Of a stretch of 64,000 nucleotides of DNA, positions 1 to 47,460 are shown piece after piece. The number at the start of each line of letters is the position of its first letter. Position 1 is the stretch's first letter. The notes below the pieces were generated by a model. That model searched no databases. It was not told where the DNA came from and saw nothing but the letters and a program-made list of their open reading frames with translations. The position numbers and the translations under genes were made by a program. Origin of the DNA: a bacterium (GTDB taxonomy: Bacteria; Orphanbacterota; Orphanbacteria; JBJXGV01). The stretch spans positions 19,326 through 83,325 of the forward strand of contig JBJXGV010000063.1 of assembly GCA_046160485.1 (NCBI GenBank), given 5' to 3'.

Positions 1-2201
1 TCAATCTCGCCGCGCTCTGCTACGCGCGCGGCGACACCGCGCGCGCGCGGACTCTCTACGACGACGCGCTCGCGACGCGCGAGCGCAAGTTCGGTCCGAA
101 CCACCCGCAACTCGGCGAGGTGCTGGCGCCCTACGCGGCGTATCTCGCGCTCGCGCGCGCCGACGCGACGGCCCTCGACCTCGCGTTGCGCGCGGAGAGA
201 ATCGGCCGCGACCATCTCCGGCTTGCGGCGCAGACGCAACCCGAGATCGCCGCCCTCCGCTATGCCGCGGTGCGCGCGTCGGGCCTCGATCTTGCGCTCG
301 GGCTGGCGGCGTCGGGCCGCCTCGACCCGCGCGGCGCGGAGCGCGCTTGGGACGCGCTCGTCGCGTCGCGCGCGCTCGTCCTCGAGGAGATGGCGACGCG
401 GCGCGAGTTATTCGAGTCGGCGAGCGACCCGGTGTTGCGCGCGTTGTGGGACCGGTTCGGGAGCGCGAGCCGCGATCTGGCGCGCGTGCTCCTCGAGGAA
501 GGAGAGGGCGCGTCGGATACGCTGCGTGCGCGGATCGAAGCGGCGCGCTCGACGCGCGACGGCGCGGAGCGCGAACTCGCCGTGGCGAGCGCGGGGTTCC
601 GACGCGGCTCGCAGTCGCGCGACGTGACGCTCCGCGAGGTTCTCGCCGCCTTGCCGCCGGGGTCGGTTCTCGTGAGCTACGCGCGCTACCGCGATCTGCT
701 TGCGCACGCCGGCCCGGCGAGCCTGCTCGACATCGCGTGGGACCCGCGCGCGAGCGGCACGCCGCGCGACGTCGTTCTCGTCGCGCGCGGCGGCAAGATC
801 GAGGCCGTCGTCGATCTCGGGGACGCCGCGGCGATCGATCGCGCGGTCGCGCGCTGGCTCGACGAGTCGTCGCGCGGCGCGCTCGTTCGCGGGCGCGGCG
901 AGGGAGAGGCGCTCGCGGCGTACGCAGCGGCGGGCGATGCGCTGCGGCGCGCGATCTGGGATCCGATCGCGCCGCATGTCGCCGGGGCGAGCCGCGTGTT
1001 CATCGTTCCGGACGGGCCGCTCGCGCTCGTCAGCTTCGCGGCGCTGCCGCTCGCACCGGAAAGCGCGCCCGGTCGCGCCGAGAGCGGCCTGCGCTTTCTG
1101 ATCGACGGTGAGCCGGCGCTGCACATGCTCAACAGCGAGCGCGAAGTCGTCGAGTGGGACGCGCGCGCAGCCGCCGGCGACGGGCTTCTTGCGCTCGGCG
1201 GCGCCGCGTTCGACCGGCCGGGCGACGAGAGACTCGAGGCGGGCTCCGGGAGCGCGCGCGATGGCGCGTCGCCGCGTGCCTCGGGTGCGCCCGCCGGCGC
1301 GCGCGACCCGCTCGGCGAGAGCGGCGTCTTCCGCGGGCAGCGCGCGGGATGCGCGCCGTTTCGAGAGCTTCGATTCGCGGAGCTCCCCGCGTCGCGCGGT
1401 GAAGCGGAAGAGGTCGCGCGGCGCTGGGCCGCGACCGTCGCGCGCGCGTCGAGCGCTCCGCCGTCTTCGACGGGCGGCGCCGCGACGCTCTTGACGGGGG
1501 AGCGCGCGAGCGAAGCGTCGGTGAAGCGCCTGGCGCCGGGCCGCCGCGTCGTGCACCTCGCGAGCCACGGGTTCTTTCTGCGCGCCGATTGCGAGATCGG
1601 CGATGCAGGCCCGGCCGGCGAAGCGGGAACACGCGGCATCGGAGGGCTGAGCCCGTCGGGGCGGGCCGCCGCGAAGGTGGACGCCGCGGCGGCGGGCGTG
1701 CACGGCGCCGCCCGCGAAGCGGCGACGGCGCAGCAACCTCCTCGCCCCGCGCGCGCCGCCGCGGCGAACCCGCTTCGCCTCTCGGGGCTCGCCCTCGCCG
1801 GCGCCAACCTCCGCGCGACCGCGGCCCCGGCGCACGAAGATGGGATTCTCACCGCGGAGGAGGTTGCGGCGCTCGATCTGCGCGGGGTCGCGTGGGTCGT
1901 CCTCTCCGCGTGCGACACCGGCGTCGGCGATCTCGGAATCGGCGAGGGAGTCTTCGGATTGCGCCGCGCGTTTCAGATCGCGGGCGCGCGCACTGTGGTC
2001 TCGAGCCTCTGGGCTGTTCGCGACGACGTTGCGGCCGGGTGGATGAGTGCGCTCTACGAAAGTCGCTGGAGCGGCGGCGACGACACAGCGAGCGCTGTGC
2101 GCTCGGCGAGCCGCCGTCTGCTCGAGGCGCGGCGCGCCTCCGGCGCGAGCGTCCATCCCTTCTACTGGGGAGGCTTCATCGCGACGGGCGACTGGCGCTG
2201 A
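1..2201 (+). CDS. TPR repeat and CHAT (caspase-like) domain protein, 5'-truncated at window edge
   Basis: Reading frame is open from position 3 and the N-terminal part shows TPR-like periodicity (NLAALCYARGDTARARTLYDDALATRERKFGPNHPQLG). The C-terminal part carries CHAT hallmarks: VHLASHGFF (His site) and VVLSACDTGVGD (Cys site). ORF track 120..2201 is the in-window portion. Confidence 0.75.
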   Translation, partial: NLAALCYARGDTARARTLYDDALATRERKFGPNHPQLGEVLAPYAAYLALARADATALDLALRAERIGRDHLRLAAQTQPEIAALRYAAVRASGLDLALGLAASGRLDPRGAERAWDALVASRALVLEEMATRRELFESASDPVLRALWDRFGSASRDLARVLLEEGEGASDTLRARIEAARSTRDGAERELAVASAGFRRGSQSRDVTLREVLAALPPGSVLVSYARYRDLLAHAGPASLLDIAWDPRASGTPRDVVLVARGGKIEAVVDLGDAAAIDRAVARWLDESSRGALVRGRGEGEALAAYAAAGDALRRAIWDPIAPHVAGASRVFIVPDGPLALVSFAALPLAPESAPGRAESGLRFLIDGEPALHMLNSEREVVEWDARAAAGDGLLALGGAAFDRPGDERLEAGSGSARDGASPRASGAPAGARDPLGESGVFRGQRAGCAPFRELRFAELPASRGEAEEVARRWAATVARASSAPPSSTGGAATLLTGERASEASVKRLAPGRRVVHLASHGFFLRADCEIGDAGPAGEAGTRGIGGLSPSGRAAAKVDAAAAGVHGAAREAATAQQPPRPARAAAANPLRLSGLALAGANLRATAAPAHEDGILTAEEVAALDLRGVAWVVLSACDTGVGDLGIGEGVFGLRRAFQIAGARTVVSSLWAVRDDVAAGWMSALYESRWSGGDDTASAVRSASRRLLEARRASGASVHPFYWGGFIATGDWR

Positions 2202-19397: not shown

Positions 19398-19973
19398 ATG
19401 AGAGACGGCGCCGAAAGCCTCCGCATCGGAGAGCTGGCCGCGCGCTCGGGCAAGACGATCCGCGCGCTCCACCTTTACGAGCAGATGGGGCTGCTGCCGG
19501 CCGCCGAACGGTCCGAGTGCGGCTACCGCCTCTTCCGCAGCGACGCGCCCGTCCGAATCGAGTGGATCGACGCGCTTCAATCGCTCGGCTTGTCCCTCGC
19601 CGAGATTCGCGAGTTCGATCTCGAGTTCGAGCGCCGGACGCTGGGGCCGCAGGCCGCCGCGCTCGCGCGGAAGCGATTCAAGGAGAAACTCGTCGAAACG
19701 CGGCAGGCGATCGAACGGCTCCGAATGCTCGAATCGGAGTTGTGCGCGGCGCTCGAATACCTCGAGGCATGCCGCGGCTGCATTCCGCCTCAGCCCAGCG
19801 CCGTCTGCCCAGAGTGCGACGTGCCGCGCGAGAAGTCAGAGAAGCCGATTTTGATGAAGGGGTTCTATTCGAAGCCGGGCCCGCCGGCGACGCGGAGCGC
19901 AGCCGCGAAGAGTTCGACGGCCGGCTTTCGTATCGCGCAACGGCGGCGCCGCGCGCGCAAAGGAGCTTCATGA
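19398..19973 (+). CDS. MerR family transcriptional regulator with Cys-rich C-terminus
   Basis: ATG with GGTGAGG RBS. HTH LRIGELAARSGKTIRALHLYEQMGLL. C-terminal C-x8-C-x2-C-x9-C-x2-C. The ORF-track 5' extension from 19218 is probably not translated. Confidence 0.75.
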   Translation: MRDGAESLRIGELAARSGKTIRALHLYEQMGLLPAAERSECGYRLFRSDAPVRIEWIDALQSLGLSLAEIREFDLEFERRTLGPQAAALARKRFKEKLVETRQAIERLRMLESELCAALEYLEACRGCIPPQPSAVCPECDVPREKSEKPILMKGFYSKPGPPATRSAAAKSSTAGFRIAQRRRRARKGAS

Positions 19974-21022
19974 GCACCGCAACAAGCGAAGACCTGCTCA
20001 AGGAATTGAGCCGGATTACGGACACCTATCACAACGAGAACATCGTCGCGCTCGGGATCGTCAAAGAGGCGCGGGTCGAGGGCGCGCGCGCGCGCGTCCA
20101 CATCGAGCTGCCGACGCCGGCGTATCCGCTGCGCGAACGCTTCGAGGCCGAAGCACGAGCCCGCGCGGGCGCTCTCGCCGGCGTTGCGTCGGTCGACATC
20201 GAGTTCACGGCATCGGTCGCCACGCCGCCCGTCCTCCTCGGCAACGCGATGCCCGGCGTGAAGCACCCGATCGCCGTCGCCAGCGGCAAGGGAGGCGTCG
20301 GCAAGTCGACGGTCGCGGTCAATCTCGCCGTGGCTCTCGCCCAGTACGGCGCCGCCGTCGGCCTTCTCGACGCGGACATCTACGGTCCGTCGATTCCGAT
20401 CATGCTCGGCGAACGCCGGCAGCCGAAGCCCTCGCCCTCCGGAAAGATTCTCCCGCTCGAGCGCTACGGCGTTCGGATGATGTCGATCGGTTTCATCGCG
20501 ACCGGCGACACGCCGGTTATTTGGCGCGGCCCGCTCGTCTCGCGGATGCTGCAGCAGTTCCTCATGCAAGTGGAGTGGGGCGAACTCGATTACCTCATCA
20601 TCGATATGCCGCCGGGCACCGGTGACGCGCAACTCACCCTCTCGCAGCAGTGCCCGCTCTCGGGCGCTGTGGTCGTCACGACGCCGCAGGAAGTCGCGCT
20701 CGAAGATGTCTACCGAGCCGTGCAGATGTTCGGCCAGGTACGCGTACCGATTCTCGGAATCGTCGAGAACATGAGCGGGTTCGCATGCCCGCACTGCGGC
20801 GAGGTGACCTCCGTGTTCCGTTCAGGCGGCGGCGCCGCGGCCGCGGAGAAGTCGGGCGTCCCGCTCCTCGGGCGCATCCCGCTCGATCCGGCAATCTGCG
20901 ACGGCGGCGATGCCGGCGCGCCGATCGTGGCCGCACACCCCGAGAGTCCGCAATCCGCCGGCTTCCGCAAGATCGCCGGCGAAGTCGCCGCGCAGCTCGC
21001 CGTTATGTCGCGCGCCGGTTAA
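19970..21022 (+). CDS. apbC: Fe-S cluster carrier ATPase Mrp/ApbC
   Basis: ATGA overlap with the MerR stop. N-terminal DUF59/MIP18-like domain, Walker A GKGGVGKST, CPHCGE CxxC. Confidence 0.9.
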   Translation: MSTATSEDLLKELSRITDTYHNENIVALGIVKEARVEGARARVHIELPTPAYPLRERFEAEARARAGALAGVASVDIEFTASVATPPVLLGNAMPGVKHPIAVASGKGGVGKSTVAVNLAVALAQYGAAVGLLDADIYGPSIPIMLGERRQPKPSPSGKILPLERYGVRMMSIGFIATGDTPVIWRGPLVSRMLQQFLMQVEWGELDYLIIDMPPGTGDAQLTLSQQCPLSGAVVVTTPQEVALEDVYRAVQMFGQVRVPILGIVENMSGFACPHCGEVTSVFRSGGGAAAAEKSGVPLLGRIPLDPAICDGGDAGAPIVAAHPESPQSAGFRKIAGEVAAQLAVMSRAG

Positions 21023-21036
21023 AAAGGAGATTCGAA

Positions 21037-21897
21037 TTGGTTGCTAGCGCGTTTGCGATCGGCCTGAAACAAGATCACTCGCTCGGCGTCTACCTGCGCG
21101 AGATCGGCGAGTATCCGCTCCTGACTCCCGAAGAAGAACGCACGCTCGGGCGCAGGGTACGGACGAAGCAGGACAAGGCGGCGCTCGACCATCTCGTCAC
21201 TGCGAATCTGCGCTTCGTCGTTCACATCGCGAAGAAGTACGCCAATCGCGGCCTCTCGCTCGCGGATGTCATTCACGAGGGGAATCTCGGGCTGATCCGC
21301 GCGGCGGAGGGTTTCGATGAGCGCCGCGGCGTGCGATTCATCTCGTACGCACAGTGGTGGATTCGCCAATGCATCCTGCTCGCGATCGCTAAGCAGTCGC
21401 GCATGATCCGGCTCCCGATGAACAAGCAGGGGACGCTGCACAAGGTCTACAAGGTCGGCGATCAGATGCGCAACACGCTAGGCCGCGAACCGAGCCACGC
21501 GGAGGTCGCGGAGGCGATGAACATTCCGGAGAACGAGCTGTTGGAGACGATGAACCTCTCGACGTTCCATCTTTCGCTCGACGCGGGCGAGTCGTCCGAC
21601 GGCGAGCAGTCGCTCGCGAACGTCATCGCGGACGAGAGCGTCCCGCTTCCCGATGACCGCCTCATCGACGAGAGCATGCGATGGGATGTTCAGCGCGCGA
21701 TCGAGCTTTTGACCCCGCGCGAGTCGGAGATCCTTCGGCTCTATTACGGCGTCGGGTGCGATCGCCCCCACACGCTCGAGGAGATCGGAGCGGTGCACCG
21801 CCTCTCGAAAGAGCGAGTGCGGCAGCTCAAGGAGCGCGCGCTCCAGCGTCTTGCCCGCGGCGCGGACGCGAAGAAACTCCAGTCCTACCTGAACTGA
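21037..21897 (+). CDS. RNA polymerase sigma-70 family factor (regions 1.2-4; short RpoD/RpoS-like)
   Basis: TTG start 14 nt after apbC stop, preceded by AAAGGAGA. Conserved regions 2 (TANLRFVVHIAKKY, region 2.2-like), 3 and 4 (LTPRESEILRLYYG). Confidence 0.8.
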   Translation: MVASAFAIGLKQDHSLGVYLREIGEYPLLTPEEERTLGRRVRTKQDKAALDHLVTANLRFVVHIAKKYANRGLSLADVIHEGNLGLIRAAEGFDERRGVRFISYAQWWIRQCILLAIAKQSRMIRLPMNKQGTLHKVYKVGDQMRNTLGREPSHAEVAEAMNIPENELLETMNLSTFHLSLDAGESSDGEQSLANVIADESVPLPDDRLIDESMRWDVQRAIELLTPRESEILRLYYGVGCDRPHTLEEIGAVHRLSKERVRQLKERALQRLARGADAKKLQSYLN

Positions 21898-22012
21898 CAA
21901 AAAAACACTAATTCTCGCCGTCTAATCGCGTGTGCTAGACTCGACGCGATTTCGAACTGTTTCTGCAACGCAACTCGTCTTCGAAAACCGAACCGGCTGT
22001 GCAGGCGGCCGC

Positions 22013-23932
22013 ATGAGGTCCCCGATGCGAACGAGCGCGACTGCAACTCAGTGCTTTTGCGCCCCGACGCGACGCCGCGCTCTTTGGCGCACTGCGTTCT
22101 GCGTGGGTAGCGCCTCCCTTTGCGCGCTCGCAACGCCACTGCCCACCCTCGCGCTGAACTTCACCAACGTCACGTCTGCGGCCGGATTCATCTACGCCCA
22201 CGGCTACAGCGGCCCTGTCGGGGAGGCGCGCCTCTCGGCCGGCGGCGTCGCGGTCGGCGACTACGATCGGGACGGTTGGGAAGACGTTTACGTCGTGCGC
22301 GGCAATATCGGGCCCAACCTGCTCTTTCGCAATCTCGGCAACGGCACGTTCCAGGAGGTCGGCGCGTCCGCCGGCGTCAACATCAGCGGCGCGTACGGGT
22401 CTGGCCCCACGTTCGGCGACTACGACGGCGACGGCTGGCTCGACTTGATCATTGGCGGGGCGGATCCGACGCAGCCGCGTCTCTTCCGCAACTTGGGCAC
22501 CGGCGCGTTCGCTGATGTCACCCCGACCTGCGGCATCAGCACACTGATGAACACCTTCTCGTGCACCTACGGCGACTACGACATCGACGGCGACCTCGAT
22601 CTCTTCCTGACGCACTGGGGACCGATCGGAAGCCCCGACCATCTTTGGCGCAACAACGGCAACGGATCCTTCACGTCGGTCGACTGGGACGCTGGCCTTT
22701 CGATCCTCGGAGACGAAGGCGCCGACTACTCGTACACGGGAAACTTCGCGGACATCAACGACGATGGTTTTCCGGATTTGCTCGTCGCGGCGGACTTCGA
22801 GCGCTCGAAGGTATTCATCAACGACGGCGACGGGACGTTCACGAACGTGACCACCGGCGTGATCTCCGACGAAAACGGAATGGGCGGCGCGGTCGGCGAC
22901 TACGATAACGACGGCGACCTCGATTGGTTCGTATCGAGCATTTGGGATCCGAACGGCGTGCCGGAGGGGAGCTGGGGCATCACCGGCAACCGGCTCTACC
23001 GTAACGCGGGCGGCGGCGTTTTCCAGGATGTCACCACGGCGACGGGCGTGCGCCAGGGATACTGGGGCTGGGGCTCGAGTTTCGCCGACTTCAACAACGA
23101 CGGGCACCTCGATCTCGTTCACGTGAACGGATGGAACGCGCTCGAATTCGAGCGCGACTCGACGCGGGTTTTTATCTCCGGCGGTGACGCGACGTTCACC
23201 GAGCAGTCGTACGTGCTTGGCGTGCGCGACGTCGGGCAGGGGCGCGGCGTGGCGTGTTTCGATTACGACCGCGACGGCGATCTCGACATTTTCATCGCGA
23301 ACAACGGTTCGGCGCCGTTGTTCTATCGAAACGACGGCGGCAACGCGCTCAAGTATCTGAGCGTCCGCCTCGCGGGGCCGTCGCCGAATACCGAGGGAAT
23401 CGGCGCGAGGGTTTTCGTGACGGCGGGCGGCGTCACGCAGATGCGCGAGATTCGCTGCGGCAGCAACTACGTCTCCCAGGATCCGGCGGTCGCGCACTTC
23501 GGACTCGGTTCCGCGACGCTCGTCAGCGAGCTTCGCGTCGAGTGGCCGGATGGCGTGACGACGGTGCTCAACGGCCTCGCGCCGAATCAACGCCTCGTGC
23601 TCGATCAAAACGTAACCGGCGTTTCTCCGGGCTCCGGTTCCACCCCTTTGGGATCGGCGTTTGAACTCGTCGGAGGTGCGCCCAACCCCTTCGGCGCCTC
23701 GACCACGATCCGGTTCCGGTTGCCGCACCGCGCCGACGTTTCGCTTCGCGTCTATTCGCTCGCCGGCCGGCATGTGGCGACGCTCGTCGACGAGTCGCGC
23801 GAGCCCGGCGAGCACGGCGTCGACTGGGACGGACGCGATGGCGCGGGTCGCCTTGCCGCCGCCGGGCCGTACGTCGTGCGCCTCGAGTCTGCTGCGGGCG
23901 CCGTCTCAACACGCCTCATCCTCGCTCGCTAG
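22013..23932 (+). CDS. secreted FG-GAP/VCBS-type repeat protein (CRTAC1/ASPIC-UnbV-like) with C-terminal T9SS-CTD / FlgD-Ig-like domain
   Basis: Signal peptide. Repeated GDYDxDGxxD calcium-binding propeller motifs. C-terminal about 85 aa (PNPF...WDGRD...) homologous to the C-terminus of the 61270..63492 protein. Start is uncertain (22013 or 22025). Confidence 0.75.
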   Translation: MRSPMRTSATATQCFCAPTRRRALWRTAFCVGSASLCALATPLPTLALNFTNVTSAAGFIYAHGYSGPVGEARLSAGGVAVGDYDRDGWEDVYVVRGNIGPNLLFRNLGNGTFQEVGASAGVNISGAYGSGPTFGDYDGDGWLDLIIGGADPTQPRLFRNLGTGAFADVTPTCGISTLMNTFSCTYGDYDIDGDLDLFLTHWGPIGSPDHLWRNNGNGSFTSVDWDAGLSILGDEGADYSYTGNFADINDDGFPDLLVAADFERSKVFINDGDGTFTNVTTGVISDENGMGGAVGDYDNDGDLDWFVSSIWDPNGVPEGSWGITGNRLYRNAGGGVFQDVTTATGVRQGYWGWGSSFADFNNDGHLDLVHVNGWNALEFERDSTRVFISGGDATFTEQSYVLGVRDVGQGRGVACFDYDRDGDLDIFIANNGSAPLFYRNDGGNALKYLSVRLAGPSPNTEGIGARVFVTAGGVTQMREIRCGSNYVSQDPAVAHFGLGSATLVSELRVEWPDGVTTVLNGLAPNQRLVLDQNVTGVSPGSGSTPLGSAFELVGGAPNPFGASTTIRFRLPHRADVSLRVYSLAGRHVATLVDESREPGEHGVDWDGRDGAGRLAAAGPYVVRLESAAGAVSTRLILAR

Positions 23933-23949
23933 CCGCGCGGGGCACACTC

Positions 23950-24735
23950 TTGTCCGCGCGGCGCCGAGTCGAAGTTTCCGCAGGCGTCATCGAACGCGGC
24001 GGACGGATTCTCATCGCGCAGCGGCGTCCCGGCGATCACCTCGCACTCAACTGGGAATTCCCAGGGGGCAAGCGAAAGCATGGCGAGAGTTGGGAGGACT
24101 GCCTTCGCCGCGAGCTCCTCGAGGAGATCGGCGTCGAGGTGGCGGTGGGGGCATGGCTCGACGCGGTGACGCACGCGTACGACGACCGCGATGTCCATCT
24201 GCGTTTCTTTCGATGCCGAATCACGCGCGGAACGCCGGCGTCTCTCGACTGCCACGACGTTCGCTGGGTCGCGCCGTGTGAGCTTGCGAATTTCGAATTC
24301 CCCGAGGCAGACGCGGCACTCGTGCGCTGGCTTTCGGCGTCACGCACACAGACGAGCGTCCCGGCGAGCTTGACGATCGAGCCGCGGGGCGGCGAATCGG
24401 CGGCGGTGGCGGAAGCGGTCGACGTGCGATGGGGAACGCAGCTCGACGAAGCCATGGCGCGTTGCGGTGTCCGGTCGCGAATGGGTTGCGGGGCCGGGCT
24501 GTGCGGCGCATGCGCGGTCGATGTCGTCGCGGGCGCCGCCAATCTCACGCCGCCGACCGCGGAGGAGCGCGCGTGGTTCGCGCCCGACGCGGCGAGCACG
24601 ACCCGGCCGAGCGATCCGCGCGATCCGCGAACAGCGTCCGAGGTCGCGCGTGTCGGCCGGCGCCTTGCGTGTCAGGCGCGCATCACAGGGAACATCGTCC
24701 TTGCGCTTAAGGAGCGCTCGCTTCTTCACTTCTAG
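23950..24735 (+). CDS. Nudix hydrolase (MutT-like) fused to C-terminal [2Fe-2S] ferredoxin-like domain
   Basis: Nudix box GGKRKHGESWEDCLRRELLEEIGV. C-terminal CGAGLCGACAV...LACQARI plant-type ferredoxin Cys pattern. TTG start at 23950 is the ORF-track start; start is uncertain. Confidence 0.7.
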   Translation: MSARRRVEVSAGVIERGGRILIAQRRPGDHLALNWEFPGGKRKHGESWEDCLRRELLEEIGVEVAVGAWLDAVTHAYDDRDVHLRFFRCRITRGTPASLDCHDVRWVAPCELANFEFPEADAALVRWLSASRTQTSVPASLTIEPRGGESAAVAEAVDVRWGTQLDEAMARCGVRSRMGCGAGLCGACAVDVVAGAANLTPPTAEERAWFAPDAASTTRPSDPRDPRTASEVARVGRRLACQARITGNIVLALKERSLLHF

Positions 24736-24792
24736 CGCCGAGCGCGGCGTCGTGGGGCCGCGTCACGCGTCACGCGTCGCGCGCACCCGCTC

Positions 24793-25530
24793 TTACGCGA
24801 TCGAACGGCCGCCGTCGACGAACACGGTCTGCCCCGTCATGTACGGGGCCCGCGTTGCGAGAAAGACGACCGCGGAGGTGATTTCCTCGGGCGTTGCATG
24901 CCGTCCGAGCGGAACGCGGCCGAGAGGCGGCAGCGGCGCCTCATCGCGCGGACCGTTCGGATCGTCGTCCGCGAACGCGATCCCAGCGGGCGCGAGCGAG
25001 TTGACGCGCACCGCGGGCGCGTAGCGGCGCGCGAGCGCGCGCGTCGCATGCGCGAGCGCGGACTTCGACAGGCTGTAGGCGATGTGGCGGCGATACGGAA
25101 TGCGGCCGCCGACCGAGCCAATGTTGACGACGGCGCCGTGACGCGCCGCGAGTGCCGGCGCAAGCGCCCGCGTGAGCAGGATCGGCGCCAAGAGATTCAG
25201 CCGCGCAACTTGGTCCCAGGATTCCGGACTGAGTTCATCGATCGACTCGGTAGGGAAAAGGGCCGCGTTGTTGATGAGGATGTCGGCGCCGCCGAAGAGG
25301 GCGAGCGCGGCGGCGGCGGCGGCGCGGCAGTCACGGGCGGCGCGCAGGTCGGCGCGCATCGCGTGGGCGCGGCGGCCGAGCTCGCGCGCTTCCGTCACGG
25401 TTGCGTGCGCGCCCGCCTCCGAGGCGCGAAACGTCACGAAGAGGTCGCAGCCCTCGCGTGCGAGCGCGAGCGCGATCTGTTTGCCGAGGCGGCGCCCGCC
25501 GCCGGTCACGATCGCGACCTTTGCGCTCAC
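24793..25530 (-). CDS. SDR family oxidoreductase
   Basis: TGGGRRLG, NNAA, YSLSK catalytic motif. Confidence 0.8.
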   Translation of the reverse strand: MSAKVAIVTGGGRRLGKQIALALAREGCDLFVTFRASEAGAHATVTEARELGRRAHAMRADLRAARDCRAAAAAALALFGGADILINNAALFPTESIDELSPESWDQVARLNLLAPILLTRALAPALAARHGAVVNIGSVGGRIPYRRHIAYSLSKSALAHATRALARRYAPAVRVNSLAPAGIAFADDDPNGPRDEAPLPPLGRVPLGRHATPEEITSAVVFLATRAPYMTGQTVFVDGGRSIA

Positions 25531-25751
25531 GCTTCACTCTCCCTGTCTCGTGGCCGTGGCGATCGCGTGCGCAGCAGGACGCCCGGGTCGCGCCTGGTTT
25601 GTTCGGTGCGCTGACGTGCGGGATTTGAGAAGATCGGCGCGCTCGCTCGCCGCCGCGGCCGCGTGTTTGACGCAGCGAACCGAGCCGGACCGCGAGCAGT
25701 ATAGAGTCGACGATTCATCCTCACAAGACGACCACGCCGGGAGGATTTCAC

Positions 25752-27036: not shown

Positions 27037-27363
27037 CTATGCGCTAAACGAACTCCCGCAGCCGCATTTCCCGCTCGAGTTCGGATTCTCGATCTTGAAT
27101 CCCGCGCCGTGAAGGCCTTCGACGTAGTCGATCTTCGAACCGATCAGGTAGTTGAGGCTCATCGGATCGACGACCAGGCTGAAGCCGAACGTCTCTTGCG
27201 GATAGACCTCGTCATCGTCCTTCAGGTCGTCGAACGCGAAACCGTACTGGAATCCCGCGCACCCGCCGCCTTCGACGTAGATGCGGAGATTCCGCTGATC
27301 GGGCTTCTCTTCGTCGAGGATTTCCTTGATCTTCAGAGCGGCCGTTTCGGTGATCATCACCAT
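27037..27363 (-). CDS. A-type Fe-S cluster insertion/carrier protein (IscA/ErpA/SufA family)
   Basis: 108 aa. GGGCAGFQY and C-terminal GKCGCGSSF. GAAGGTGG RBS. The ORF-track 262-aa form has an Arg-rich spurious extension. Confidence 0.85.
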   Translation of the reverse strand: MVMITETAALKIKEILDEEKPDQRNLRIYVEGGGCAGFQYGFAFDDLKDDDEVYPQETFGFSLVVDPMSLNYLIGSKIDYVEGLHGAGFKIENPNSSGKCGCGSSFSA

Positions 27364-27398
27364 GCTTATCCACCTTCTTTCTTCAAGATGCCCCGCGC

Positions 27399-28361
27399 CT
27401 ACTGCGACGCGTGAATCTGGTAGCTCCAACCGAGGTCGCGCGGGAACTCCTGCGCTCTCGGCACAATGATCGCCTCTTTGATGCAGACTTGCTCGCAAAG
27501 TTTGCAAGAGACGCACTTTTTCTCGTCGACCACCGCGAGCTTCGTCACGAACGAAAGCGGATCGTTCGTGTCGACGAGCGAGATGCAATCGAACGGGCAA
27601 ACATCGACGCAGTACGCGCAGCCCGTACAGAGTTCGTCGATCACGACCGCCTTCGGGATTTCCTTCGCCTTGATGCGCTCGACGAGCACGGAGCGCTGAT
27701 CGACGATGCAGTCGTACGGGCAGTACACACCGCAGACGCTGCAATTGATGCAGAGGTTCGGGTCGATGATGTAGCGCTCTTTCTTTAGCCCCGTGATCGC
27801 TTTCGTCGGGCACTTGATGTCGCACACGCCGCAGCCGACGCAGTTCTCGAGGATGTAATGCGCGTCCCAGAGCGGCGTTTCGTTCAGCACGATTCCCGCC
27901 GGCAGAGCGCGGATGACGAGTACGTCGCCGATGTAGCGGTGGAAGTACTCGCCGATCTCCTCCTCGAACGCGAAGCGCGTCGTAAACGTGCGCGGGAAAC
28001 TGAGCGTCCCGCCGCAGAGCGAGAGAATCTTTTCATCGTCCGGCGCCGTCGCGGAGACCTTGAGCACGCGACCCTCGACGAGTTCGATTTCGTACCTGTA
28101 CGCGGGCATTCTGTCGGGCAGCCCGAGCATGAACTTCTGCGGGCAATTCGGAATTTTCTCGGGGAACCAGAGGCGGATCATGTACTCGTTGCCGCTGCGC
28201 TCGATCGTGTGGACGAGCCCGTAGCGCTTGTTGCGCTCCGTCAACTCCTCGACGTCATCCTTGTGGCGCGCCCACGCCAGCTCCCATCCCGGCGCGCCGT
28301 CGTCGAGTGCGGTCCCAGCGTCGCCGGCTACCGCGGCATTCTTGGTCGCATCGTCGGCCAT
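27399..28361 (-). CDS. ferredoxin-domain protein: unassigned (possibly Hsp20/alpha-crystallin-like) N-terminal domain + four CxxCxxCxxxCP 4Fe-4S motifs
   Basis: CVGCGVCDIKCP, CINCSVCGVYCP, CTGCAYCVDVCP, CVSCKLCEQVC. The N-terminal 160 aa is not matched to a known catalytic family. Confidence 0.75.
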   Translation of the reverse strand: MADDATKNAAVAGDAGTALDDGAPGWELAWARHKDDVEELTERNKRYGLVHTIERSGNEYMIRLWFPEKIPNCPQKFMLGLPDRMPAYRYEIELVEGRVLKVSATAPDDEKILSLCGGTLSFPRTFTTRFAFEEEIGEYFHRYIGDVLVIRALPAGIVLNETPLWDAHYILENCVGCGVCDIKCPTKAITGLKKERYIIDPNLCINCSVCGVYCPYDCIVDQRSVLVERIKAKEIPKAVVIDELCTGCAYCVDVCPFDCISLVDTNDPLSFVTKLAVVDEKKCVSCKLCEQVCIKEAIIVPRAQEFPRDLGWSYQIHASQ

Positions 28362-31897: not shown

Positions 31898-32178
31898 CGC
31901 GGTGTCCCGTCACATTGTCTTCTGTTCGCTGACAAATCGGCGAACTTACACGGAGCCTCGCGCAATCCCGAGTTGTTCGCGTTGCGCGCACACGCGCACA
32001 CGCGCTTACGGCTGCACCCGTTGTGGCATGCGCCTTGCCGATGCGTTGTCGTAAGACCCGGTGAAGTCGCGGGAACCCACGAAAAGAACCCGGAAACTCG
32101 CGACGAGCAACGGGAACTTCAAAGGTACCGAAGGGGTAGTTGGAGCACATAAACCCCAGAACAAGGAGCGATCAGCAA

Positions 32179-33123
32179 ATGGTAGGTGCAGCGGCGGCCA
32201 TGCGGGTTCAGGAAGAACGCGAAGACGCGATCGAAACGAAGCGCGCCCCCAAGGTTGACACCGTCCCGAGCGTTGTTAAGAACGACAATTCCGACATCGG
32301 TTCGCTCGGCATTTATTTCAGAGACATCGGCCGGATCAACCTGCTCACGAAGGAAGAAGAGGTTCAGCTCGCACGGCGGGTTCGCCGGGGCGACTCCGAG
32401 GCGCTCACGCGTCTCGTCACGGCGAACCTGCGTTTCGTAGTCAGCGTCGCCAAGCGCTACGTCGGCCTCGGTCTCTCGCTCGAAGATCTCGTGGCCGAGG
32501 GCAACGTCGGCATCATTCGCGCGGCGCGGAAGTTCGACGACCGCCGAGGCGTACGGTTCCTCTCGTACGGCGTCTGGTGGATCAAGCAGGCGATGCTTCA
32601 GGCGCTCGCGGAGCAGGTGCCCGTCGTGCGAATCCCGCTTAATCGCAATGGCCTCATGCACAAGCTTCAGAAGACCGCTGACCAGCTCCGCAAGGCGCTC
32701 GAACGCGAGCCGACGTACTCCGAAATTGCGAAGGCCGTTTCGCTCTCGGAAGACGAGGTCGCGAATACCATGGAGCTGACGCGCAGCTACCTGTCGCTCG
32801 ACGGCGGCCCCGAGAGCGACGACGACGCGGTCGGACTCATGGAGTTCATCGAGGACTCTTCGGCGGTGTCCCCGGACGAACGCGTGGCGCGCGCGAATCT
32901 GCGCGAGGATCTCATGGCGGCGATCGACGAACTCCCCCCGCGCGAGGCCGAGGTGCTGCGGCTCTACTACGGCTTCGGGCTCCGCGAGGGAAAGACCCTC
33001 GAAGAGATCGGCGATCGGTTCCACCTTTCGCGCGAACGCATTCGTCAGATCAAGGAAGTGGCGATTCGGCGCCTTCGCGGCGGCGCGAAGGGACAAGCGC
33101 TCGAGTCGTATCTCGCCGGCTAA
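32179..33123 (+). CDS. RNA polymerase sigma-70 family factor, paralog of 21037..21897
   Basis: ATG with AGGAG RBS. TANLRFVVSVAKRY, GNVGIIRAARKFD, LPPREAEVLRLYYG. Alternative TTG start at 32140. Confidence 0.8.
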   Translation: MVGAAAAMRVQEEREDAIETKRAPKVDTVPSVVKNDNSDIGSLGIYFRDIGRINLLTKEEEVQLARRVRRGDSEALTRLVTANLRFVVSVAKRYVGLGLSLEDLVAEGNVGIIRAARKFDDRRGVRFLSYGVWWIKQAMLQALAEQVPVVRIPLNRNGLMHKLQKTADQLRKALEREPTYSEIAKAVSLSEDEVANTMELTRSYLSLDGGPESDDDAVGLMEFIEDSSAVSPDERVARANLREDLMAAIDELPPREAEVLRLYYGFGLREGKTLEEIGDRFHLSRERIRQIKEVAIRRLRGGAKGQALESYLAG

Positions 33124-36127: not shown

Positions 36128-36481
36128 ATGAGGGTCGCGAAAGAGTTTCGGTTCGAGGCGGCGCACGCGCTTCGGAACTACATGGGTTCCGACGAACCGG
36201 TGCATGGCCACTCGTGGCGCCTCCGCGTGACGCTCTCCGCGCCGGTCGCCGCGAACGGGCTCGCGTTCGATTTCGTCGAACTCGATCGCGTCGTGCGCGA
36301 ACGCGTTATCGCGCCGCTCGACCACACCGACTTAAGCGCGCGCTTCGAACAGCCCTCGACGGAACGCGTCGCGCAGTGGATCTGGAGAACACTCTCGGAT
36401 CTTCCGCTCTTCGAGGTCGCGCTGTGGGAAGGCCCCGACGCGTGGGTCGCCTACCGCGGCGAGGAGGACACGGCTAAGTGA
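36128..36481 (+). CDS. 6-pyruvoyltetrahydropterin synthase family protein (QueD/PTPS fold) with Glu-containing active-site variant (PTPS-III-like)
   Basis: EFRFEAAHAL ... DEPVHGHSW: the HGH zinc motif is present, but the position of the catalytic Cys of QueD (KCGRLHGH in E. coli) is Asp-Glu. Confidence 0.75.
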   Translation: MRVAKEFRFEAAHALRNYMGSDEPVHGHSWRLRVTLSAPVAANGLAFDFVELDRVVRERVIAPLDHTDLSARFEQPSTERVAQWIWRTLSDLPLFEVALWEGPDAWVAYRGEEDTAK

Positions 36482-44278: not shown

Positions 44279-46465
44279 ATGAAGATTCGCGTTCGCCAGT
44301 CGATCACTCTATCGAGCCGTTTTCGTTTACTTGCTCCCCGCGTGATGACCGTCGCGTTGATTCTCGGCGCGTTCGCCACATTCGCGGCATTCGGCACCGC
44401 CGCGCAGGCCGCCGCGTCGACGCCGGCGGCGCCCGCGTCCGCCGCGCATCCCGCGTGGATGGCGCAGTCGCTGCGCAACGCCGAGGCCGCTCTCGTCGCG
44501 CAGCACGGCGAGGCGCAGCGCGAACGCGCCGCGCGCGGTCTCGCGCAGATCGCCGATTTCTGGCGCGAGGAGGACGGCGGCGCCGCGGACTTCGAAGAGT
44601 TCGCGCGCACGCACTTCGCCGGCGACGGCGAGACGCACGACGCGATGTTCGCCCGCTTCCAATTCCTCCTCGAGCAAGTCGACGGTCACATGAACGAGAT
44701 CGGCCGCGAGCTTCGCCAGCAGTCGGAGCTGACGCTCGGAACGGTTTACCCGTTCGACGAAATCTGCGCCGCGTACGATCCCGGCGCGCATCTCACCGAC
44801 GATTTCTTCGGAAACAAGATCGCGTTCGTCGTGCTGCTGAATTTCCCGCTCACGACACTCGAGGAGCGGCTCAACGATGGGAAGAATTGGTCGCGGCGTC
44901 GTTGGGCCGAAGTGCGGCTTGCGCAGCGATTCTCCAAGCGCATCCCCGCGGACGTGAACCTCGCCGTGAACGAAGCCTACGCTGCCGCCGAGCAATACAT
45001 CGCGTCGTACAACATCTGGATGCACCACGTCCTCGACGACAAGGGGAAGCGAGTCTTTCCGTCGAAGCTGCGGCTTCTGACGCACTGGAATCTGCGCGAC
45101 GAGATCAAGGCGAGCTACAGCGATCCGAAGGATGGGCTCGCGAAGCAGCGCGCGCTCCAGCAGGTGATGGAGCGCATCGTGACGCAGACGATACCGGCAT
45201 GCGTCGTCGACAATCCGCGCTACGACTGGAATCCGACCACGAACGAAGTGAAGCCGTCGCCGAAGAAGGCGATCGAGGACGACGCGCCCGAGAATCGCGG
45301 GGCGCCCGCGACCGGAACGCCGCTCAACGCCCCCGAGCCGGATACGCGCTACGCGATGCTCCTCGGCACGTTCCGCGCGTCGCGGCTCGTCGATCCCTAC
45401 TCGCCGACCGCCCCGACGCTCATCGCGCGCCGCTTCGATGAGGACCGCGAGATTCCCGAGGCGCGCATGGAGTCGATGCTCAAGGCCGTGCTCACGTCGC
45501 CGGTCGTGCCGCAGGTCGCGAAGCTCATCGAGCAACGACTCGGCCGGCCGCTCGAGCCGTTCGACGTCTGGTACAACGGCTTCAAGGCGCGCGGCACGTA
45601 CACCGAAGAGGAACTCGACGCGATCACGAAGAAGAAGTATCCGACGCCCGACGCGTACAAGAGCGACATGCCGCGTTTGCTCGTCGATCTCGATTTCACG
45701 CCGGAGCGTGCCGAGTATCTGGCGAACAACATCATCGTCGATGCGGCGCGCGGCTCCGGCCATGCGCTCGGCGCGCAGATGCGCACGGCGAAGACTCACC
45801 TGCGCACGCGCGTCGAACCCGACGGTATGAACTACAAGGGCTACAACATCGCGGTGCACGAGATGGGGCACAACGTCGAGCAGACGTTCTCGCTCAATGA
45901 TATCGATCACACGCTCTTGAGCGGCGTGCCGAATAACGCGTTCACGGAGGCGCTCGCGTTCGTGTTCCAGGGGCGCGACCTCGAATTGCTCGGACTCTCG
46001 ACGCCCGACGCGAAGAGCCACGCGCTCGCGACGCTCCACGATTTCTGGGGGACGTTCGAGATCAGCGGCGTCGCGCTGGTCGACATGGCCGTCTGGCATT
46101 GGATGTACGACCATCCCGAGTGCACGGCGGCCGAACTGCGCGACGCGACGATCGAAATCTCCAAGCGCATCTGGAACGAATACTACGCGCCGGTTTTCGG
46201 GACTCGCGACGTCGTGCTTCTCGGAATCTACTCGCACATGATCAGCCTCTCGATGTATCTGCCGGACTACCCGATCGGCCACCTGATCGCGTTTCAGATC
46301 GAGGAGAAGATGCACGCCGCCGGAAAGATCGGTCCCGAGTTCGAGCGCGTTTCGAAGATCGGAAGCGTCACGCCCGACATGTGGATGATCGAGGCGACCG
46401 GAAAGCCCGTGGGGCCCGAGGCGCTGCTCGCGGCGACCGAGCGCGCGCTCGCCGACTTGCGATGA
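44279..46465 (+). CDS. secreted HExxH zinc metallopeptidase (728 aa)
   Basis: GGAGG RBS. Signal-like hydrophobic region. VHEMGHNVE. Confidence 0.65.
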   Translation: MKIRVRQSITLSSRFRLLAPRVMTVALILGAFATFAAFGTAAQAAASTPAAPASAAHPAWMAQSLRNAEAALVAQHGEAQRERAARGLAQIADFWREEDGGAADFEEFARTHFAGDGETHDAMFARFQFLLEQVDGHMNEIGRELRQQSELTLGTVYPFDEICAAYDPGAHLTDDFFGNKIAFVVLLNFPLTTLEERLNDGKNWSRRRWAEVRLAQRFSKRIPADVNLAVNEAYAAAEQYIASYNIWMHHVLDDKGKRVFPSKLRLLTHWNLRDEIKASYSDPKDGLAKQRALQQVMERIVTQTIPACVVDNPRYDWNPTTNEVKPSPKKAIEDDAPENRGAPATGTPLNAPEPDTRYAMLLGTFRASRLVDPYSPTAPTLIARRFDEDREIPEARMESMLKAVLTSPVVPQVAKLIEQRLGRPLEPFDVWYNGFKARGTYTEEELDAITKKKYPTPDAYKSDMPRLLVDLDFTPERAEYLANNIIVDAARGSGHALGAQMRTAKTHLRTRVEPDGMNYKGYNIAVHEMGHNVEQTFSLNDIDHTLLSGVPNNAFTEALAFVFQGRDLELLGLSTPDAKSHALATLHDFWGTFEISGVALVDMAVWHWMYDHPECTAAELRDATIEISKRIWNEYYAPVFGTRDVVLLGIYSHMISLSMYLPDYPIGHLIAFQIEEKMHAAGKIGPEFERVSKIGSVTPDMWMIEATGKPVGPEALLAATERALADLR

Positions 46466-47460
46466 CAGACGCGGTCTGGACGCCGGTGCGCGCGCTTCTC
46501 GATCGCCACCGGCGTGTTCTCGTCACGACCCATCTCGGCCCCGACGCGGACGCGATCGGCTCCGAGATCGCGTTCGCTGAAATCCTGCGCGCGATGGGGA
46601 AGGAAGTCGCGCTCTGGAACGCGAGCCCGACACCGCGCAATTGCGCGTTCCTCGATCCGGCGCGCGAGATTCGCGCGTGGAGCGGCCCCGACGCCGCGGT
46701 TCTTGCGTGGGCCGATCTCGCCGTCATTCTCGATGTGAACGCGTGGTCGAATCTCGGCGAGGTCGGCGACGCGATTCGCGCCTCGAGCCTGCCGCGCCTC
46801 CTCATCGATCATCATCGCGGGGGAGACGACGACATCGCCGAGACGCGCGTCTCGGATGTCACGGCCGCGGCGACCGGCGTACTGATCTTCGAGATGGCGC
46901 GCGCGTTCGGCCAGCCGATCACGCCGCGAGCGGCGACGCCACTGTACGCCGCGCTCTGCGGCGACACCGGCTCCTTCCGCTTCGCGAACACGGACGCGCG
47001 CGCGCTTCACGTCGCGGCCGATCTCGTCGCCGCGGGCGCGCTCCCCGACGATATCTACCGCGCCCTCTTCGAGGATCTGTCGTGGGAGCGGCTGCGGCTC
47101 TTGCCTCACGCGCTCGGGAGCTTGCGCGCGGGCGCGGACGGGAAGCTCGCGTGGCTCGGCATCACGCACGCGATGTTCCGCGACGCGGGCGCCATCGAGG
47201 AAGACGCCGACCGTTTCGTGGATCAGATTCGCGGATTGCGCGGCGTTGAGGTCTGCGCCGTTTTTCGCGAACTCGAGAGCGGTGACGTTAAGGTGAGTCT
47301 TCGATCGTCGGGGCGCGTCGACGTGCAGCGCGTCGCGGTGCAATTCGGCGGCGGCGGGCATCGCCTCGCCGCCGGCGCGCATCTTCCTGGCCCTTACGCC
47401 GACGCCACCGCGAAGGTCGTCGCCGCGTTGGAGGCCGGCGTTCGCTCCGGAGGCGCGTAG
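46462..47460 (+). CDS. nrnA: DHH-family phosphoesterase NrnA (oligoribonuclease / pAp phosphatase)
   Basis: ATGA overlap. DHH motifs (THLGPDADAIGS, DHH, GGGH). Confidence 0.8.
   Translation: MTDAVWTPVRALLDRHRRVLVTTHLGPDADAIGSEIAFAEILRAMGKEVALWNASPTPRNCAFLDPAREIRAWSGPDAAVLAWADLAVILDVNAWSNLGEVGDAIRASSLPRLLIDHHRGGDDDIAETRVSDVTAAATGVLIFEMARAFGQPITPRAATPLYAALCGDTGSFRFANTDARALHVAADLVAAGALPDDIYRALFEDLSWERLRLLPHALGSLRAGADGKLAWLGITHAMFRDAGAIEEDADRFVDQIRGLRGVEVCAVFRELESGDVKVSLRSSGRVDVQRVAVQFGGGGHRLAAGAHLPGPYADATAKVVAALEAGVRSGGA

Follow-up and report, generated by a model that had tools for sequence, protein, structure and literature searches.

A MutT-like Nudix hydrolase joined in one chain to a predicted FdC-like [2Fe-2S] ferredoxin domain in an uncultured bacterial lineage

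Introduction

MutT-type enzymes are generally seen as constitutive housekeeping sanitisers, and a search of the literature returned no description of redox control of a Nudix hydrolase via an Fe-S cluster. A gene in the window studied here (the whole stretch of 64,000 nucleotides that was analysed) raises the question of whether a Nudix hydrolase and a [2Fe-2S] ferredoxin domain are truly joined in one polypeptide and, if they are, what the second module would do for the first. Such a covalent fusion is the simplest system in which to ask whether nucleotide-pool sanitation is wired to redox or iron status. Its annotation is also worth correcting: databases call these proteins 'NUDIX domain-containing protein' or 'mutator protein MutT', and the ferredoxin domain is ignored.

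Results

Reading frame and flanking nucleotides

The original prediction had placed both domains in a single ORF of 261 codons, and the ORF list gave exactly these bounds (Table 1). The product, P0001 in our family set, is identical to NCBI entry MFN0151971.1, named 'NUDIX domain-containing protein'. GC content peaked at the third codon position and was lowest at the second, in both domain halves as well as in the majority of 90-nt windows, with no shift across the linker. This continuous signal speaks against a frameshift splitting the gene, an outcome that had been considered with the prediction, as does the uninterrupted fusion found in 10 further clusters and in fragment P0134. Since the same fusion occurs at 45-66% identity in independent assemblies, the frameshift objection fails.

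The N-terminus MSARRR(V/I)EVSAG is common to the window protein, P0002 and P0004 in the family alignment. The TTG start and the 17-nt spacer that precedes it are also kept in locus L029, where 1 nt of the spacer is changed. The spacer holds GGGG, a possible weak Shine-Dalgarno sequence, which suggests that the fusion gene may be co-transcribed with the upstream FG-GAP/ASPIC gene. A promoter scan found no sigma-70-like promoter in 23500-25700, terminator-like sites near the fusion gene were no more frequent than in shuffled sequences, and the Rfam scan returned no RNA family in the window.

Table 1. Position of the fusion gene and its features in the window
Feature	Position	Strand	Remarks
Spacer CCGCGCGGGGCACACTC	23933..23949	+	17 nt, from the stop of the upstream FG-GAP/ASPIC gene to the TTG start
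Whole Nudix-ferredoxin fusion gene	23950..24735	+	261 aa; TTG start; TAG stop at 24733-24735
Nudix hydrolase domain, MutT/NudG/MutT2/BdRppH-like	23962..24348	+	aa 5-133
Nudix box GKRKHGESWEDCLRRELLEEIGV, metal-binding catalytic motif	24067..24135	+	G40...V62; regex match
Inter-domain linker	24349..24363	+	aa 134-138; length and sequence vary across the family
[2Fe-2S] ferredoxin domain (Fer2, FdC-like, beta-grasp)	24364..24714	+	aa 139-255
Cluster-ligand motif C180-G-A-G-L-C185-G-A-C188 (C-x4-C-x2-C)	24487..24513	+	alignment to FdC
Low-complexity insert in the Cys3-Cys4 interval	24571..24657	+	~aa 208-236; alignment
Fourth cluster ligand C241, within R238-L239-A-C241-Q-A	24670..24672	+	aligns to FdC RLACQ

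The Nudix domain carries a complete catalytic box

The predicted MutT-like Nudix box proved complete: read as G40-x5-E46-x7-R54-E55-L56-x-E58-E59-x-G61-V62, it is an exact fit to G-x5-E-x7-R-E-U-x-E-E-x-G-U, and a regex scan of the window found no other real one. In the alignment of 11 fusion proteins G40, E46, R54, E55, E58 and E59 are invariant, and G61 is present in at least 90%. Both Pfam families involved score above their gathering cutoffs, NUDIX_4 (PF14815) as the best Pfam match of the window protein (E=2e-21, 76.3 bits against 35) and NUDIX (PF00293) with E=9e-18 (65 bits against 21.1).

More specific profiles were less decisive. The best NCBIfam match was PRK08999, in its N-terminal part only (1.9e-34, 119.1 bits against 245, positions 3-131 of 315). 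The two MutT models, NF008044 (3e-25, 88.6 bits against an equivalog cutoff of 148) and TIGR00586 (82.7 bits against 97.9), were likewise below threshold, hence the protein is MutT-like and cannot be filed as a MutT equivalog. NudG also stayed below its cutoff (6e-23, 81.1 bits against 156); with every NCBIfam equivalog score under its cutoff, the substrate specificity of the Nudix domain is not assignable by profile. Among structures, PDB 3ees matched this domain at 1.2e-21. The AF2 model has block-mean pLDDT values of ~85-95 over most of the Nudix region, and Foldseek aligned that region to BdRppH, MutT2 and 3r03 with target-normalised TM scores of 0.85-0.88; MutY and MutT1 structures were also among the fold matches. 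The (d)NTP pyrophosphohydrolases of the MutT, NudG, MutT2 and BdRppH type are thus the closest to this domain. A fusion-specific extra metal site made of the invariant Nudix-domain residues C51, C89 and C101 was considered and rejected, as the standalone homologs P0012-P0117 carry them too.

The C-terminal domain retains four putative cluster ligands

The C-x4-C-x2-C...C pattern noticed in the C-terminal half aligned to Pfam Fer2, as had been anticipated, and also to FdC, a [2Fe-2S] ferredoxin of solved structure. The full motif, C180-x4-C185-x2-C188-x52-C241, spans nt 24487-24672; a second regex match of this type in the window (47078-47239) lies in an Arg-rich, apparently non-coding frame and is not real. 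C180, C185 and C188 as well as G179, G183, G186 and A187 are invariant in 11/11 aligned fusion proteins, and C241 is present in every full-length member, the truncated P0009 alone being without it.

Fer2 (PF00111) matched the window protein with E=3.4e-8 and 33.7 bits against a gathering cutoff of 21, rising to 36 bits for the isolated domain. The alignment covers model positions 9-53 of 77 only, because of the long low-complexity insert. Fer2 matched 10 of 10 family members tested, with a best E of 2.2e-13, and the short-form members cover the full model. The insert itself, of 6-18 aa, is limited to P0001-P0004 and reaches 18 aa in the window protein, where Cys3 and Cys4 are separated by x52, against x33 or x34 in short-form members; its pLDDT is low in the full-length AF2 model (54-67).

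A profile of the C-terminal domain matched PDB 9I2A (FdC) at E=1.8e-19 over the length of the domain, all four Cys included, and 9I2A led the other PDB profile matches by 10 orders of magnitude. Modelled alone with AF2, the domain reached a pLDDT of 78.5 and a pTM of 0.71. Foldseek returned 9i2a as the best match of this model (TM 0.76), and the top 50 were all [2Fe-2S] ferredoxins or ferredoxin domains. The term 'plant-type' used in the original prediction stands for the Cys motif but not for the affiliation, as the nearest relative, Rhodobacter capsulatus FdC, has been described as a distinct ferredoxin class (PMC12223475). As judged by sequence, the C-terminal domain is therefore best called FdC-like. 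A link to YfaE, the ferredoxin of RNR maintenance, was tried with NCBIfam and rejected, the match not being significant (E = 0.071). Separately, when 5.8 billion clusters were searched with the alignment of the ferredoxin domain, the matches listed were all free ferredoxins and even the known fusions were missing among them.

The two modules are joined by a variable linker

The linker region of the family alignment is gapped and unconserved, and the distance from WEFPGGK to CGAC ranges from 132 to 146 aa among members. In the AF2 model the linker has a pLDDT of 62-67, and the full-length model a pTM of 0.58. Given this variability and this pTM, a fixed domain interface is not predicted. Taken together, the two-domain architecture is very probably real and able to hold a cluster.

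The fusion is confined to one lineage

At 90% identity, 12 fusion clusters were found including that of the window protein. The other 11 comprise ten at 45-66% identity and the fragment P0134, which is truncated at its N-terminus. The fusion was seen in some dozen independent assemblies or samples (NCBI, JGI, ENA, Logan), and in no family member was a stop or a frame change observed at the linker. Across the family the ferredoxin domain is 34-59% identical outside its conserved positions. In standalone homologs (143-165 aa), identity to the Nudix half is 47-60%.

Further carriers were sought with a fusion-specific DNA pattern (WEFPGGK, 136-146 aa, CGAC), which recovers known carrier loci and skips members with a gap of 132-135 aa and CGSC variants, for example P0134. 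Among GTDB species representatives it gave 22 matches, all chance or out of frame, with no true fusion. Among metagenome contigs one of 23 matches was real, L048, a contig already known from P0006/P0123. These scans also gave several long MutT-like ORFs, of PRK08999 type by eye, that extend ~280 residues past WEFPGGK. The literature searched for Nudix with 2Fe-2S, Fer2 or iron-sulfur architectures does not describe a Nudix-ferredoxin fusion. The architecture is thus non-standard, as initially supposed: its 12 clusters belong to one lineage, deep and uncultured, with Candidatus Eisenbacteria as the closest group that bears a name.

Wherever the genes around a member were read, the locus consists of nuoN, MerR, ApbC/Mrp, sigma-70, the fusion gene, SDR(-), M24, ErpA(-) and polyferredoxin(-). 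A housekeeping M17 peptidase from the same contigs shows an identity series parallel to that of the fusion. Because of the shared locus and these parallel series, the fusion most probably arose once, in this lineage near Candidatus Eisenbacteria, and was then inherited vertically as an ortholog at the same locus. As the neighbourhood is kept as a whole block in one lineage, it carries little functional information.

Discussion

A tentative model of redox-linked sanitation

The overall explanation that we favour, with a probability of roughly 0.4, is that of an active Nudix pyrophosphohydrolase of single origin with a tethered cluster that senses or relays redox state. The Nudix module is predicted from its motif and model to be a catalytically competent pyrophosphohydrolase of MutT/NudG type. 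It would split canonical or damaged (deoxy)nucleoside triphosphates into monophosphate and pyrophosphate, the divalent metal for hydrolysis being bound by E55, E58 and E59. Behind a short flexible linker, the FdC-like beta-grasp domain with its four Cys ligands is predicted to bind one [2Fe-2S] cluster. This tethered cluster may signal the redox, oxygen or iron status of the cell to the Nudix module: its oxidation, reduction or loss would alter the conformation or the docking of the ferredoxin domain, and either change could in turn adjust the sanitising activity or move it elsewhere under conditions that threaten the nucleotide pool with oxidative damage. Oxidative stress would be the natural signal, since the relatives of the Nudix domain (MutT and MutT2 structures) have oxidised or modified (d)NTPs as substrates.

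Sensing as the specific mechanism is proposed tentatively, and its strictest form, in which the oxidation state or integrity of the [2Fe-2S] cluster directly switches a MutT-like sanitiser on or off as the first Fe-S-gated Nudix hydrolase, is unlikely at present. If such gating were true, the defence against oxidised nucleotides would be under post-translational control by oxidative stress, which is also the source of the damage. The fusion also brings a new partner to the FdC ferredoxins, a class defined only recently. If instead the domains are functionally independent, the fusion is merely a lineage-specific curiosity.

Alternative explanations

Independence of the two modules is the most serious alternative, somewhat unlikely in our view. 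The ferredoxin would then serve another enzyme or pathway, as in a Rosetta-stone fusion, the fusion simply ensuring co-expression or co-localisation; candidate processes include Fe-S assembly or insertion by the nearby ApbC/ErpA, or a step in nucleotide metabolism that depends on ferredoxin. FdC itself does carry electrons (PMC12223475). Members of the ferredoxin subfamily are mostly free proteins of ~93 aa, and others are fused to NifU_N (P0143) or to Pyr_redox_2/Rubredoxin_C reductases (P0125, P0127, P0131). As these relatives are mostly free electron carriers or reductase/NifU modules, electron transfer is favoured over sensing on this point. A flexible and variable linker is likewise what independent modules would be expected to have. 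ApbC/Mrp, ErpA and polyferredoxin genes flank the locus directly past the nuo operon; however, the conservation of these neighbours is no more than part of the lineage-wide synteny, and several of them are encoded on the opposite strand. The non-significant YfaE match also counts against such a role, and we know of no pathway that requires a MutT-like hydrolase and a ferredoxin together.

A substrate outside the MutT range is improbable. Here the Nudix domain would act on a pterin or another non-canonical substrate, such as dihydroneopterin triphosphate in the manner of NudB/FolQ, in a pathway shared with the pteridine-reductase-like SDR next to it, for which the ferredoxin would give or sense electrons. 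The convergent SDR adjoins the fusion in all contexts read, with pteridine reductase PRK09135 as its best NCBIfam match, and a QueD/PTPS-like gene lies ~11 kb downstream. However, its 193.7 bits are below the PRK09135 cutoff of 288, with many other SDR models similar in score, and the gene is on the opposite strand. Adjacency is weak evidence given the lineage-wide synteny, and NudB is not among the best Nudix matches (MutT, NudG, MutT2, BdRppH).

Just as improbable is a ferredoxin-like domain that holds no cluster and acts as a purely structural appendage for dimerisation or protein binding. 2Fe-2S ferredoxins are known to have descendants that lack the Cys (PMC1949818), and both the partial Fer2 coverage of the window protein and the moderate pLDDT of the domain model would agree with such a fate. 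The conservation runs the other way: ligand Cys and flanking Gly are kept in full-length members of an otherwise divergent domain, and in short-form members the domain covers the whole Fer2 model and its alignment with FdC runs from end to end.

An artefact (frameshift, assembly chimera or read-through joining two genes) can be set aside despite the TTG start codon and the origin of the window in a metagenome-assembled genome, as the divergence of the carrier assemblies excludes a common assembly error and the frame is continuous throughout.

Comparison with known systems

For the model of a Nudix hydrolase with a redox-sensing or redox-relaying cluster, the closest reference on the ferredoxin side is R. 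capsulatus FdC (ferredoxin IV, fdxC; PDB 9I2A), the best match in sequence and fold. It was isolated with an intact [2Fe-2S] cluster near the protein surface (Em -285 mV), ligated by C38, C43, C46 and C81 (PMC12223475). Its GC..G.CG.C...RLACQ motif and its C-x4-C-x2-C-x34-C spacing are both as in short-form fusion members; in contrast, the window protein has x52 with its 18-aa insert, and identity between FdC and the fusion ferredoxin domain is only ~25-30%. FdC is moreover a free protein of 104 aa encoded with FprA in a nif-associated operon, whereas the fusion is found in a non-nif context.

On the Nudix side, E. coli MutT and NudG/Orf135, M. smegmatis MutT2 and Bdellovibrio BdRppH share the complete box, with TM scores of 0.78-0.88 and 25-42% identity. 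Such single-domain MutT-family enzymes end after the Nudix domain, whereas the window protein adds an Fe-S domain. MutT-type Nudix domains have repeatedly gained C-terminal partners, as in PRK08999 (MutT with a ThiE/TenI-like C-terminal domain) and in mycobacterial MutT1 (Nudix with a histidine phosphatase). In the fusion this partner is a ferredoxin instead of a ThiE-like barrel or a phosphatase.

For sensing, FeSII (Shethna protein II) of Azotobacter vinelandii may serve as a precedent by functional analogy only. This O2 sensor, once its cluster is oxidised, binds its partner enzyme and switches it off (PMC11754109). FeSII, which belongs with the fusion domain to one superfamily of [2Fe-2S] ferredoxins, was found by both profile and fold search. 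Over the aligned region it exceeds the short-form family profile by ~17 residues, which does not imply homology to the insert of the window protein. It differs from the fusion in being a free dimeric protein that acts on nitrogenase.

To our knowledge, MutY is the one well-known protein that pairs an Fe-S cluster with a MutT-like Nudix fold. Like the fusion, it holds both (the latter as NUDIX_4) in one chain, on the theme of 8-oxoguanine defence. The MutY cluster is [4Fe-4S] and sits inside the N-terminal HhH-GPD glycosylase domain, while its C-terminal Nudix-like domain is without the catalytic Nudix box and binds DNA. Pfam and NCBIfam scans found no HhH-GPD glycosylase domain in the 261-aa protein. 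In the fusion, by contrast, the Nudix domain comes first in the chain and has an intact box, and the cluster is predicted to be [2Fe-2S], carried in a separate ferredoxin fold.

One open reading frame encodes both domains

The original prediction was of a single frame holding a Nudix box and a C-x4-C-x2-C...C motif, and exactly this 261-aa frame was recovered, with matches to Pfam NUDIX_4 (E=2e-21, aa 12-125), NUDIX (E=9e-18, aa 5-128) and Fer2 (E=3.4e-8, 33.7 bits against a cutoff of 21, aa 156-200). The fusion is real and the prediction was correct at the architectural level. By regex in all six frames, no second Nudix box was found in the window and the sole other ferredoxin-motif match fell in an Arg-rich junk frame. 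GC peaked at codon position 3, with its minimum at position 2, in both domain halves and in most 90-nt windows, a pattern unchanged across the linker.

Features of the fusion gene and its surroundings (window coordinates unless stated)
Feature	Position	Strand	Basis or remark
Nudix-ferredoxin fusion gene	23950-24735	+	single ORF, 261 aa, TTG start
Nudix domain	aa 5-133	+	Pfam, NCBIfam, fold matches
Nudix box G40-KRKHG-E46-SWEDCLR-R54-E55-L-L-E58-E59-I-G61-V62	nt 24067-24135	+	motif scan
[2Fe-2S] ferredoxin domain, FdC-like	aa 139-255	+	Pfam Fer2, profile, fold matches
Ferredoxin motif C180-GAGL-C185-GA-C188 ... R-L-A-C241	nt 24487-24672	+	motif scan
Low-complexity insert, Pro/Arg/Asp/Ser/Thr-rich	24571-24657, aa ~208-236	+	low-confidence in model; P0001-P0004 subclade only
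FG-GAP/ASPIC-UnbV protein, 666 aa, C-terminal FlgD_ig	21932-23932; L029 4095-6002	+ (window copy)	between sigma-70 and fusion
Fe-S-themed neighbours	19422-21022; 27037-28361	+; -	directly downstream of nuo (complex I) operon
SDR, convergent neighbour	24793-25530	-	best NCBIfam pteridine reductase, 193.7 bits, cutoff 288 not reached
QueD/6-pyruvoyl-tetrahydropterin-synthase-like gene	36128-36481	+	~11 kb beyond SDR
Two sigma-70 paralogs, group-1/2-type (RpoD/RpoS-like)	20650-21897; 32140-33123	+	within ~12 kb

A search of ~5.8 billion protein clusters returned the identical protein (P0001, NCBI MFN0151971.1, 'MAG: NUDIX domain-containing protein [bacterium]') and ten more of the same architecture (P0002-P0011, 45-66% identity), drawn from separate samples assembled at NCBI, JGI, ENA and Logan; P0009 is truncated at its C-terminus. 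A twelfth member, the N-terminally truncated P0134, came from 50%-identity representatives. Source databases label the family merely 'NUDIX domain-containing protein' or 'mutator protein MutT'. Across the aligned eleven proteins, Nudix-box residues G40, E46, R54, E55, E58 and E59 and ferredoxin residues G179, C180, G183, C185, G186, A187 and C188 were invariant (11/11), and R238, L239, C241 and A243 were kept by all non-truncated members. The inter-domain linker varied in length and sequence, with 132-146 aa between WEFPGGK and CGAC, but in every member the frame runs through it unshifted and without a stop. This pattern is as expected for a true two-domain protein with purifying selection on both active sites, as read from the alignment. 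An artefact joining two genes by frameshift, a concern of the original prediction, or by chimerism is excluded: the same fusion occurs in independent assemblies at this divergence, with unbroken orthologs and continuous codon-position GC at the linker.

The Nudix domain is MutT-like

The N-terminal domain shows every feature that defines the Nudix superfamily in sequence and fold. Its top NCBIfam matches were the Nudix half of PRK08999 (1.9e-34; no other part of that family matches), MutT (3e-25 and 2e-23) and NudG (6e-23), all under the curated equivalog cutoffs, that of MutT included; the protein is thus neither a MutT equivalog by these cutoffs nor a PRK08999 protein. The best solved relatives were Bdellovibrio BdRppH (3ees, 1.2e-21), Rhodospirillum 3r03, M. 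smegmatis MutT2, E. coli Orf135/NudG and MutT. AlphaFold modelled most of the region with block-mean pLDDT ~85-95, and target-normalised TM against these structures was 0.78-0.88. Standalone homologs of 143-165 aa were 47-60% identical to this half; they also carry C51, C89 and C101, which are thus a clade feature outside the novelty of the fusion. From these matches, the fold and the standalone homologs, the domain is a predicted MutT-like (d)NTP pyrophosphohydrolase, with a specificity not assignable from family scores.

The ferredoxin domain resembles FdC

The Cys pattern, on whose alignment to Fer2 the original prediction depended, does align: Fer2 was matched by 10/10 family members (best E 2.2e-13), and the ferredoxin-domain profile matched R. 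capsulatus FdC (PDB 9I2A, 'Ferredoxin-4') end to end at E=1.8e-19, the next solved ferredoxin scoring 4e-9. The isolated domain was modelled with pLDDT 78.5 and pTM 0.71; its best fold match was again FdC (TM 0.76), and the top 50 of 50 fold hits were [2Fe-2S] ferredoxins or ferredoxin domains. Every feature that defines Fer2 in sequence and fold is present. FdC was purified with an intact [2Fe-2S] cluster (ligands C38, C43, C46, C81; Em = -285 mV) and, although its Cys motif is of the plant type, was assigned to a new ferredoxin class (PMC12223475). Its C-x4-C-x2-C-x34-C spacing is common to the short-form members, which lack the extra 6-18 aa of low-complexity sequence that separates Cys3 from Cys4 in the window protein and the three members nearest to it (x52 in the window protein). 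The domain has an intact four-Cys site, an FdC-like fold and predicted cluster binding. Over the aligned region the O2-sensing FeSII is ~17 residues longer than the short-form profile, and its extra segment sits in the same inter-Cys region, homology not being implied.

The fusion is rare and confined to one lineage

Searched in full with the ferredoxin-domain profile (HMMER, E<=1e-10), 1.84 billion 50%-identity representatives yielded 612 proteins. Among the best 150, most were free ferredoxins of ~93 aa, some were fused to Pyr_redox_2/Rubredoxin_C reductases or NifU_N, and the only Nudix fusions were P0002, P0011 and the fragment P0134. The other FdC-like fusions include P0143 (240 aa, scaffold-ferredoxin with NifU_N), P0125 (856 aa) and P0127 (1189 aa), self-contained reductase-ferredoxin proteins with several FdC-like stretches ahead of Pyr_redox_2/Rubredoxin_C, and P0131. 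A fusion-specific DNA pattern, which matches known carrier loci and is thus able to detect fusions, found no true one in 185,579 GTDB species-representative genomes (22/22 hits were chance); among 241 million metagenome records its sole true match was the already known P0006/P0123 contig. The literature searched, 8 million papers in full text (Nudix with 2Fe-2S, Fer2 or iron-sulfur) together with the Burroughs/Aravind beta-grasp survey, held no description of it. As had been proposed, the architecture is non-standard: a rare, lineage-restricted, undescribed combination of two well-known domain kinds.

All members with readable context share one chromosomal locus: nuoN, MerR-family regulator, ApbC/Mrp, sigma-70, fusion, optional EamA, SDR(-), M24 peptidase, ErpA(-), polyferredoxin(-). 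The window M17 aminopeptidase gives a parallel ortholog series (58-82% identity), of which those at 58-62% share long contigs with the fusion; identity next falls to <=51%, the nearest named organisms being Candidatus Eisenbacteria MAGs (45-48%). By this common locus and parallel series, the fusion has passed vertically within a single deep, uncultured lineage and is neither a mobile nor a recurrent architecture.

The Fe-S-themed neighbours, kept wherever flanks reach that far, are the MerR-family regulator (weak SoxR/CueR/ZntR-like matches), an ApbC/Mrp (NUBPL-type) Fe-S carrier, ErpA (above its equivalog cutoff) and a 319-aa polyferredoxin. Both sigma-70 paralogs also occur in the relatives' loci L002 and L004. 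The FG-GAP/ASPIC/FlgD_ig gene lies upstream of the fusion in the window and in L029, the P0002 locus and closest relative, only (absent from L002, L004 and L032). In both, its stop codon precedes the fusion TTG by 17 nt and the junctions are almost the same; its insertion may thus have placed the fusion under a new upstream transcription unit. Elsewhere, a 693-aa CHAT-domain (caspase-like) protein at the window edge (120-2201, +) adjoins housekeeping genes (amidohydrolase, Zn-ADH, M17 aminopeptidase), and no Pfam match at E<=1e-5 was obtained for two further long ORFs whose GC by codon position looks like that of genes (44279-46465, + and 51658-52962, +; 728 and 434 aa).

Possible functions and known systems

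Judged by sequence and models, the Nudix catalytic motif and fold are intact, as is the four-Cys [2Fe-2S] site in its FdC-like fold; a flexible tether links the two halves, both of which are under long-term selection. The best explanation, which we hold tentatively (probability about 0.35-0.4), is that the Nudix half would hydrolyse (d)NTPs, whether normal or damaged, and would be informed of redox, oxygen or iron status by the half that carries the cluster. SoxR-type [2Fe-2S] sensors work comparably, as does the inhibitory [2Fe-2S] cluster of the inositol-pyrophosphate phosphatase Asp1. That the cluster itself gates Nudix activity we consider unlikely. The full-length pTM of only 0.58 and the variable linker weaken every firm claim on mechanism, and lineage-wide synteny makes the neighbourhood uninformative. 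A redox-linked function is an attractive hypothesis, and its significance would be higher if gating held.

The main alternative, possible if somewhat doubtful, is that the ferredoxin simply carries electrons and that the fusion serves co-expression; NifU_N and reductase fusions exist in the same subfamily, and such a carrier may connect with the flanking Fe-S carrier genes. The SDR and the QueD-like gene make a pterin theme possible, not established, and a pterin substrate for the Nudix half is a minor alternative, the SDR scoring below cutoff on the opposite strand. A purely structural, cluster-less domain, also a minor alternative, is contradicted by the invariant ligands.

For reporting of redox, oxygen or iron status, FeSII, retrieved by both profile and fold searches, offers a same-superfamily precedent of ferredoxin-based sensing: as an O2 sensor it binds nitrogenase and switches it off once its cluster is oxidised (PMC11754109). 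MutY differs in its glycosylase domain, its cluster type and a Nudix fold that binds DNA, whereas that of the fusion is predicted to be catalytic. In its working the protein would most resemble a MutT/NudG-type Nudix enzyme joined to an FdC-type ferredoxin.
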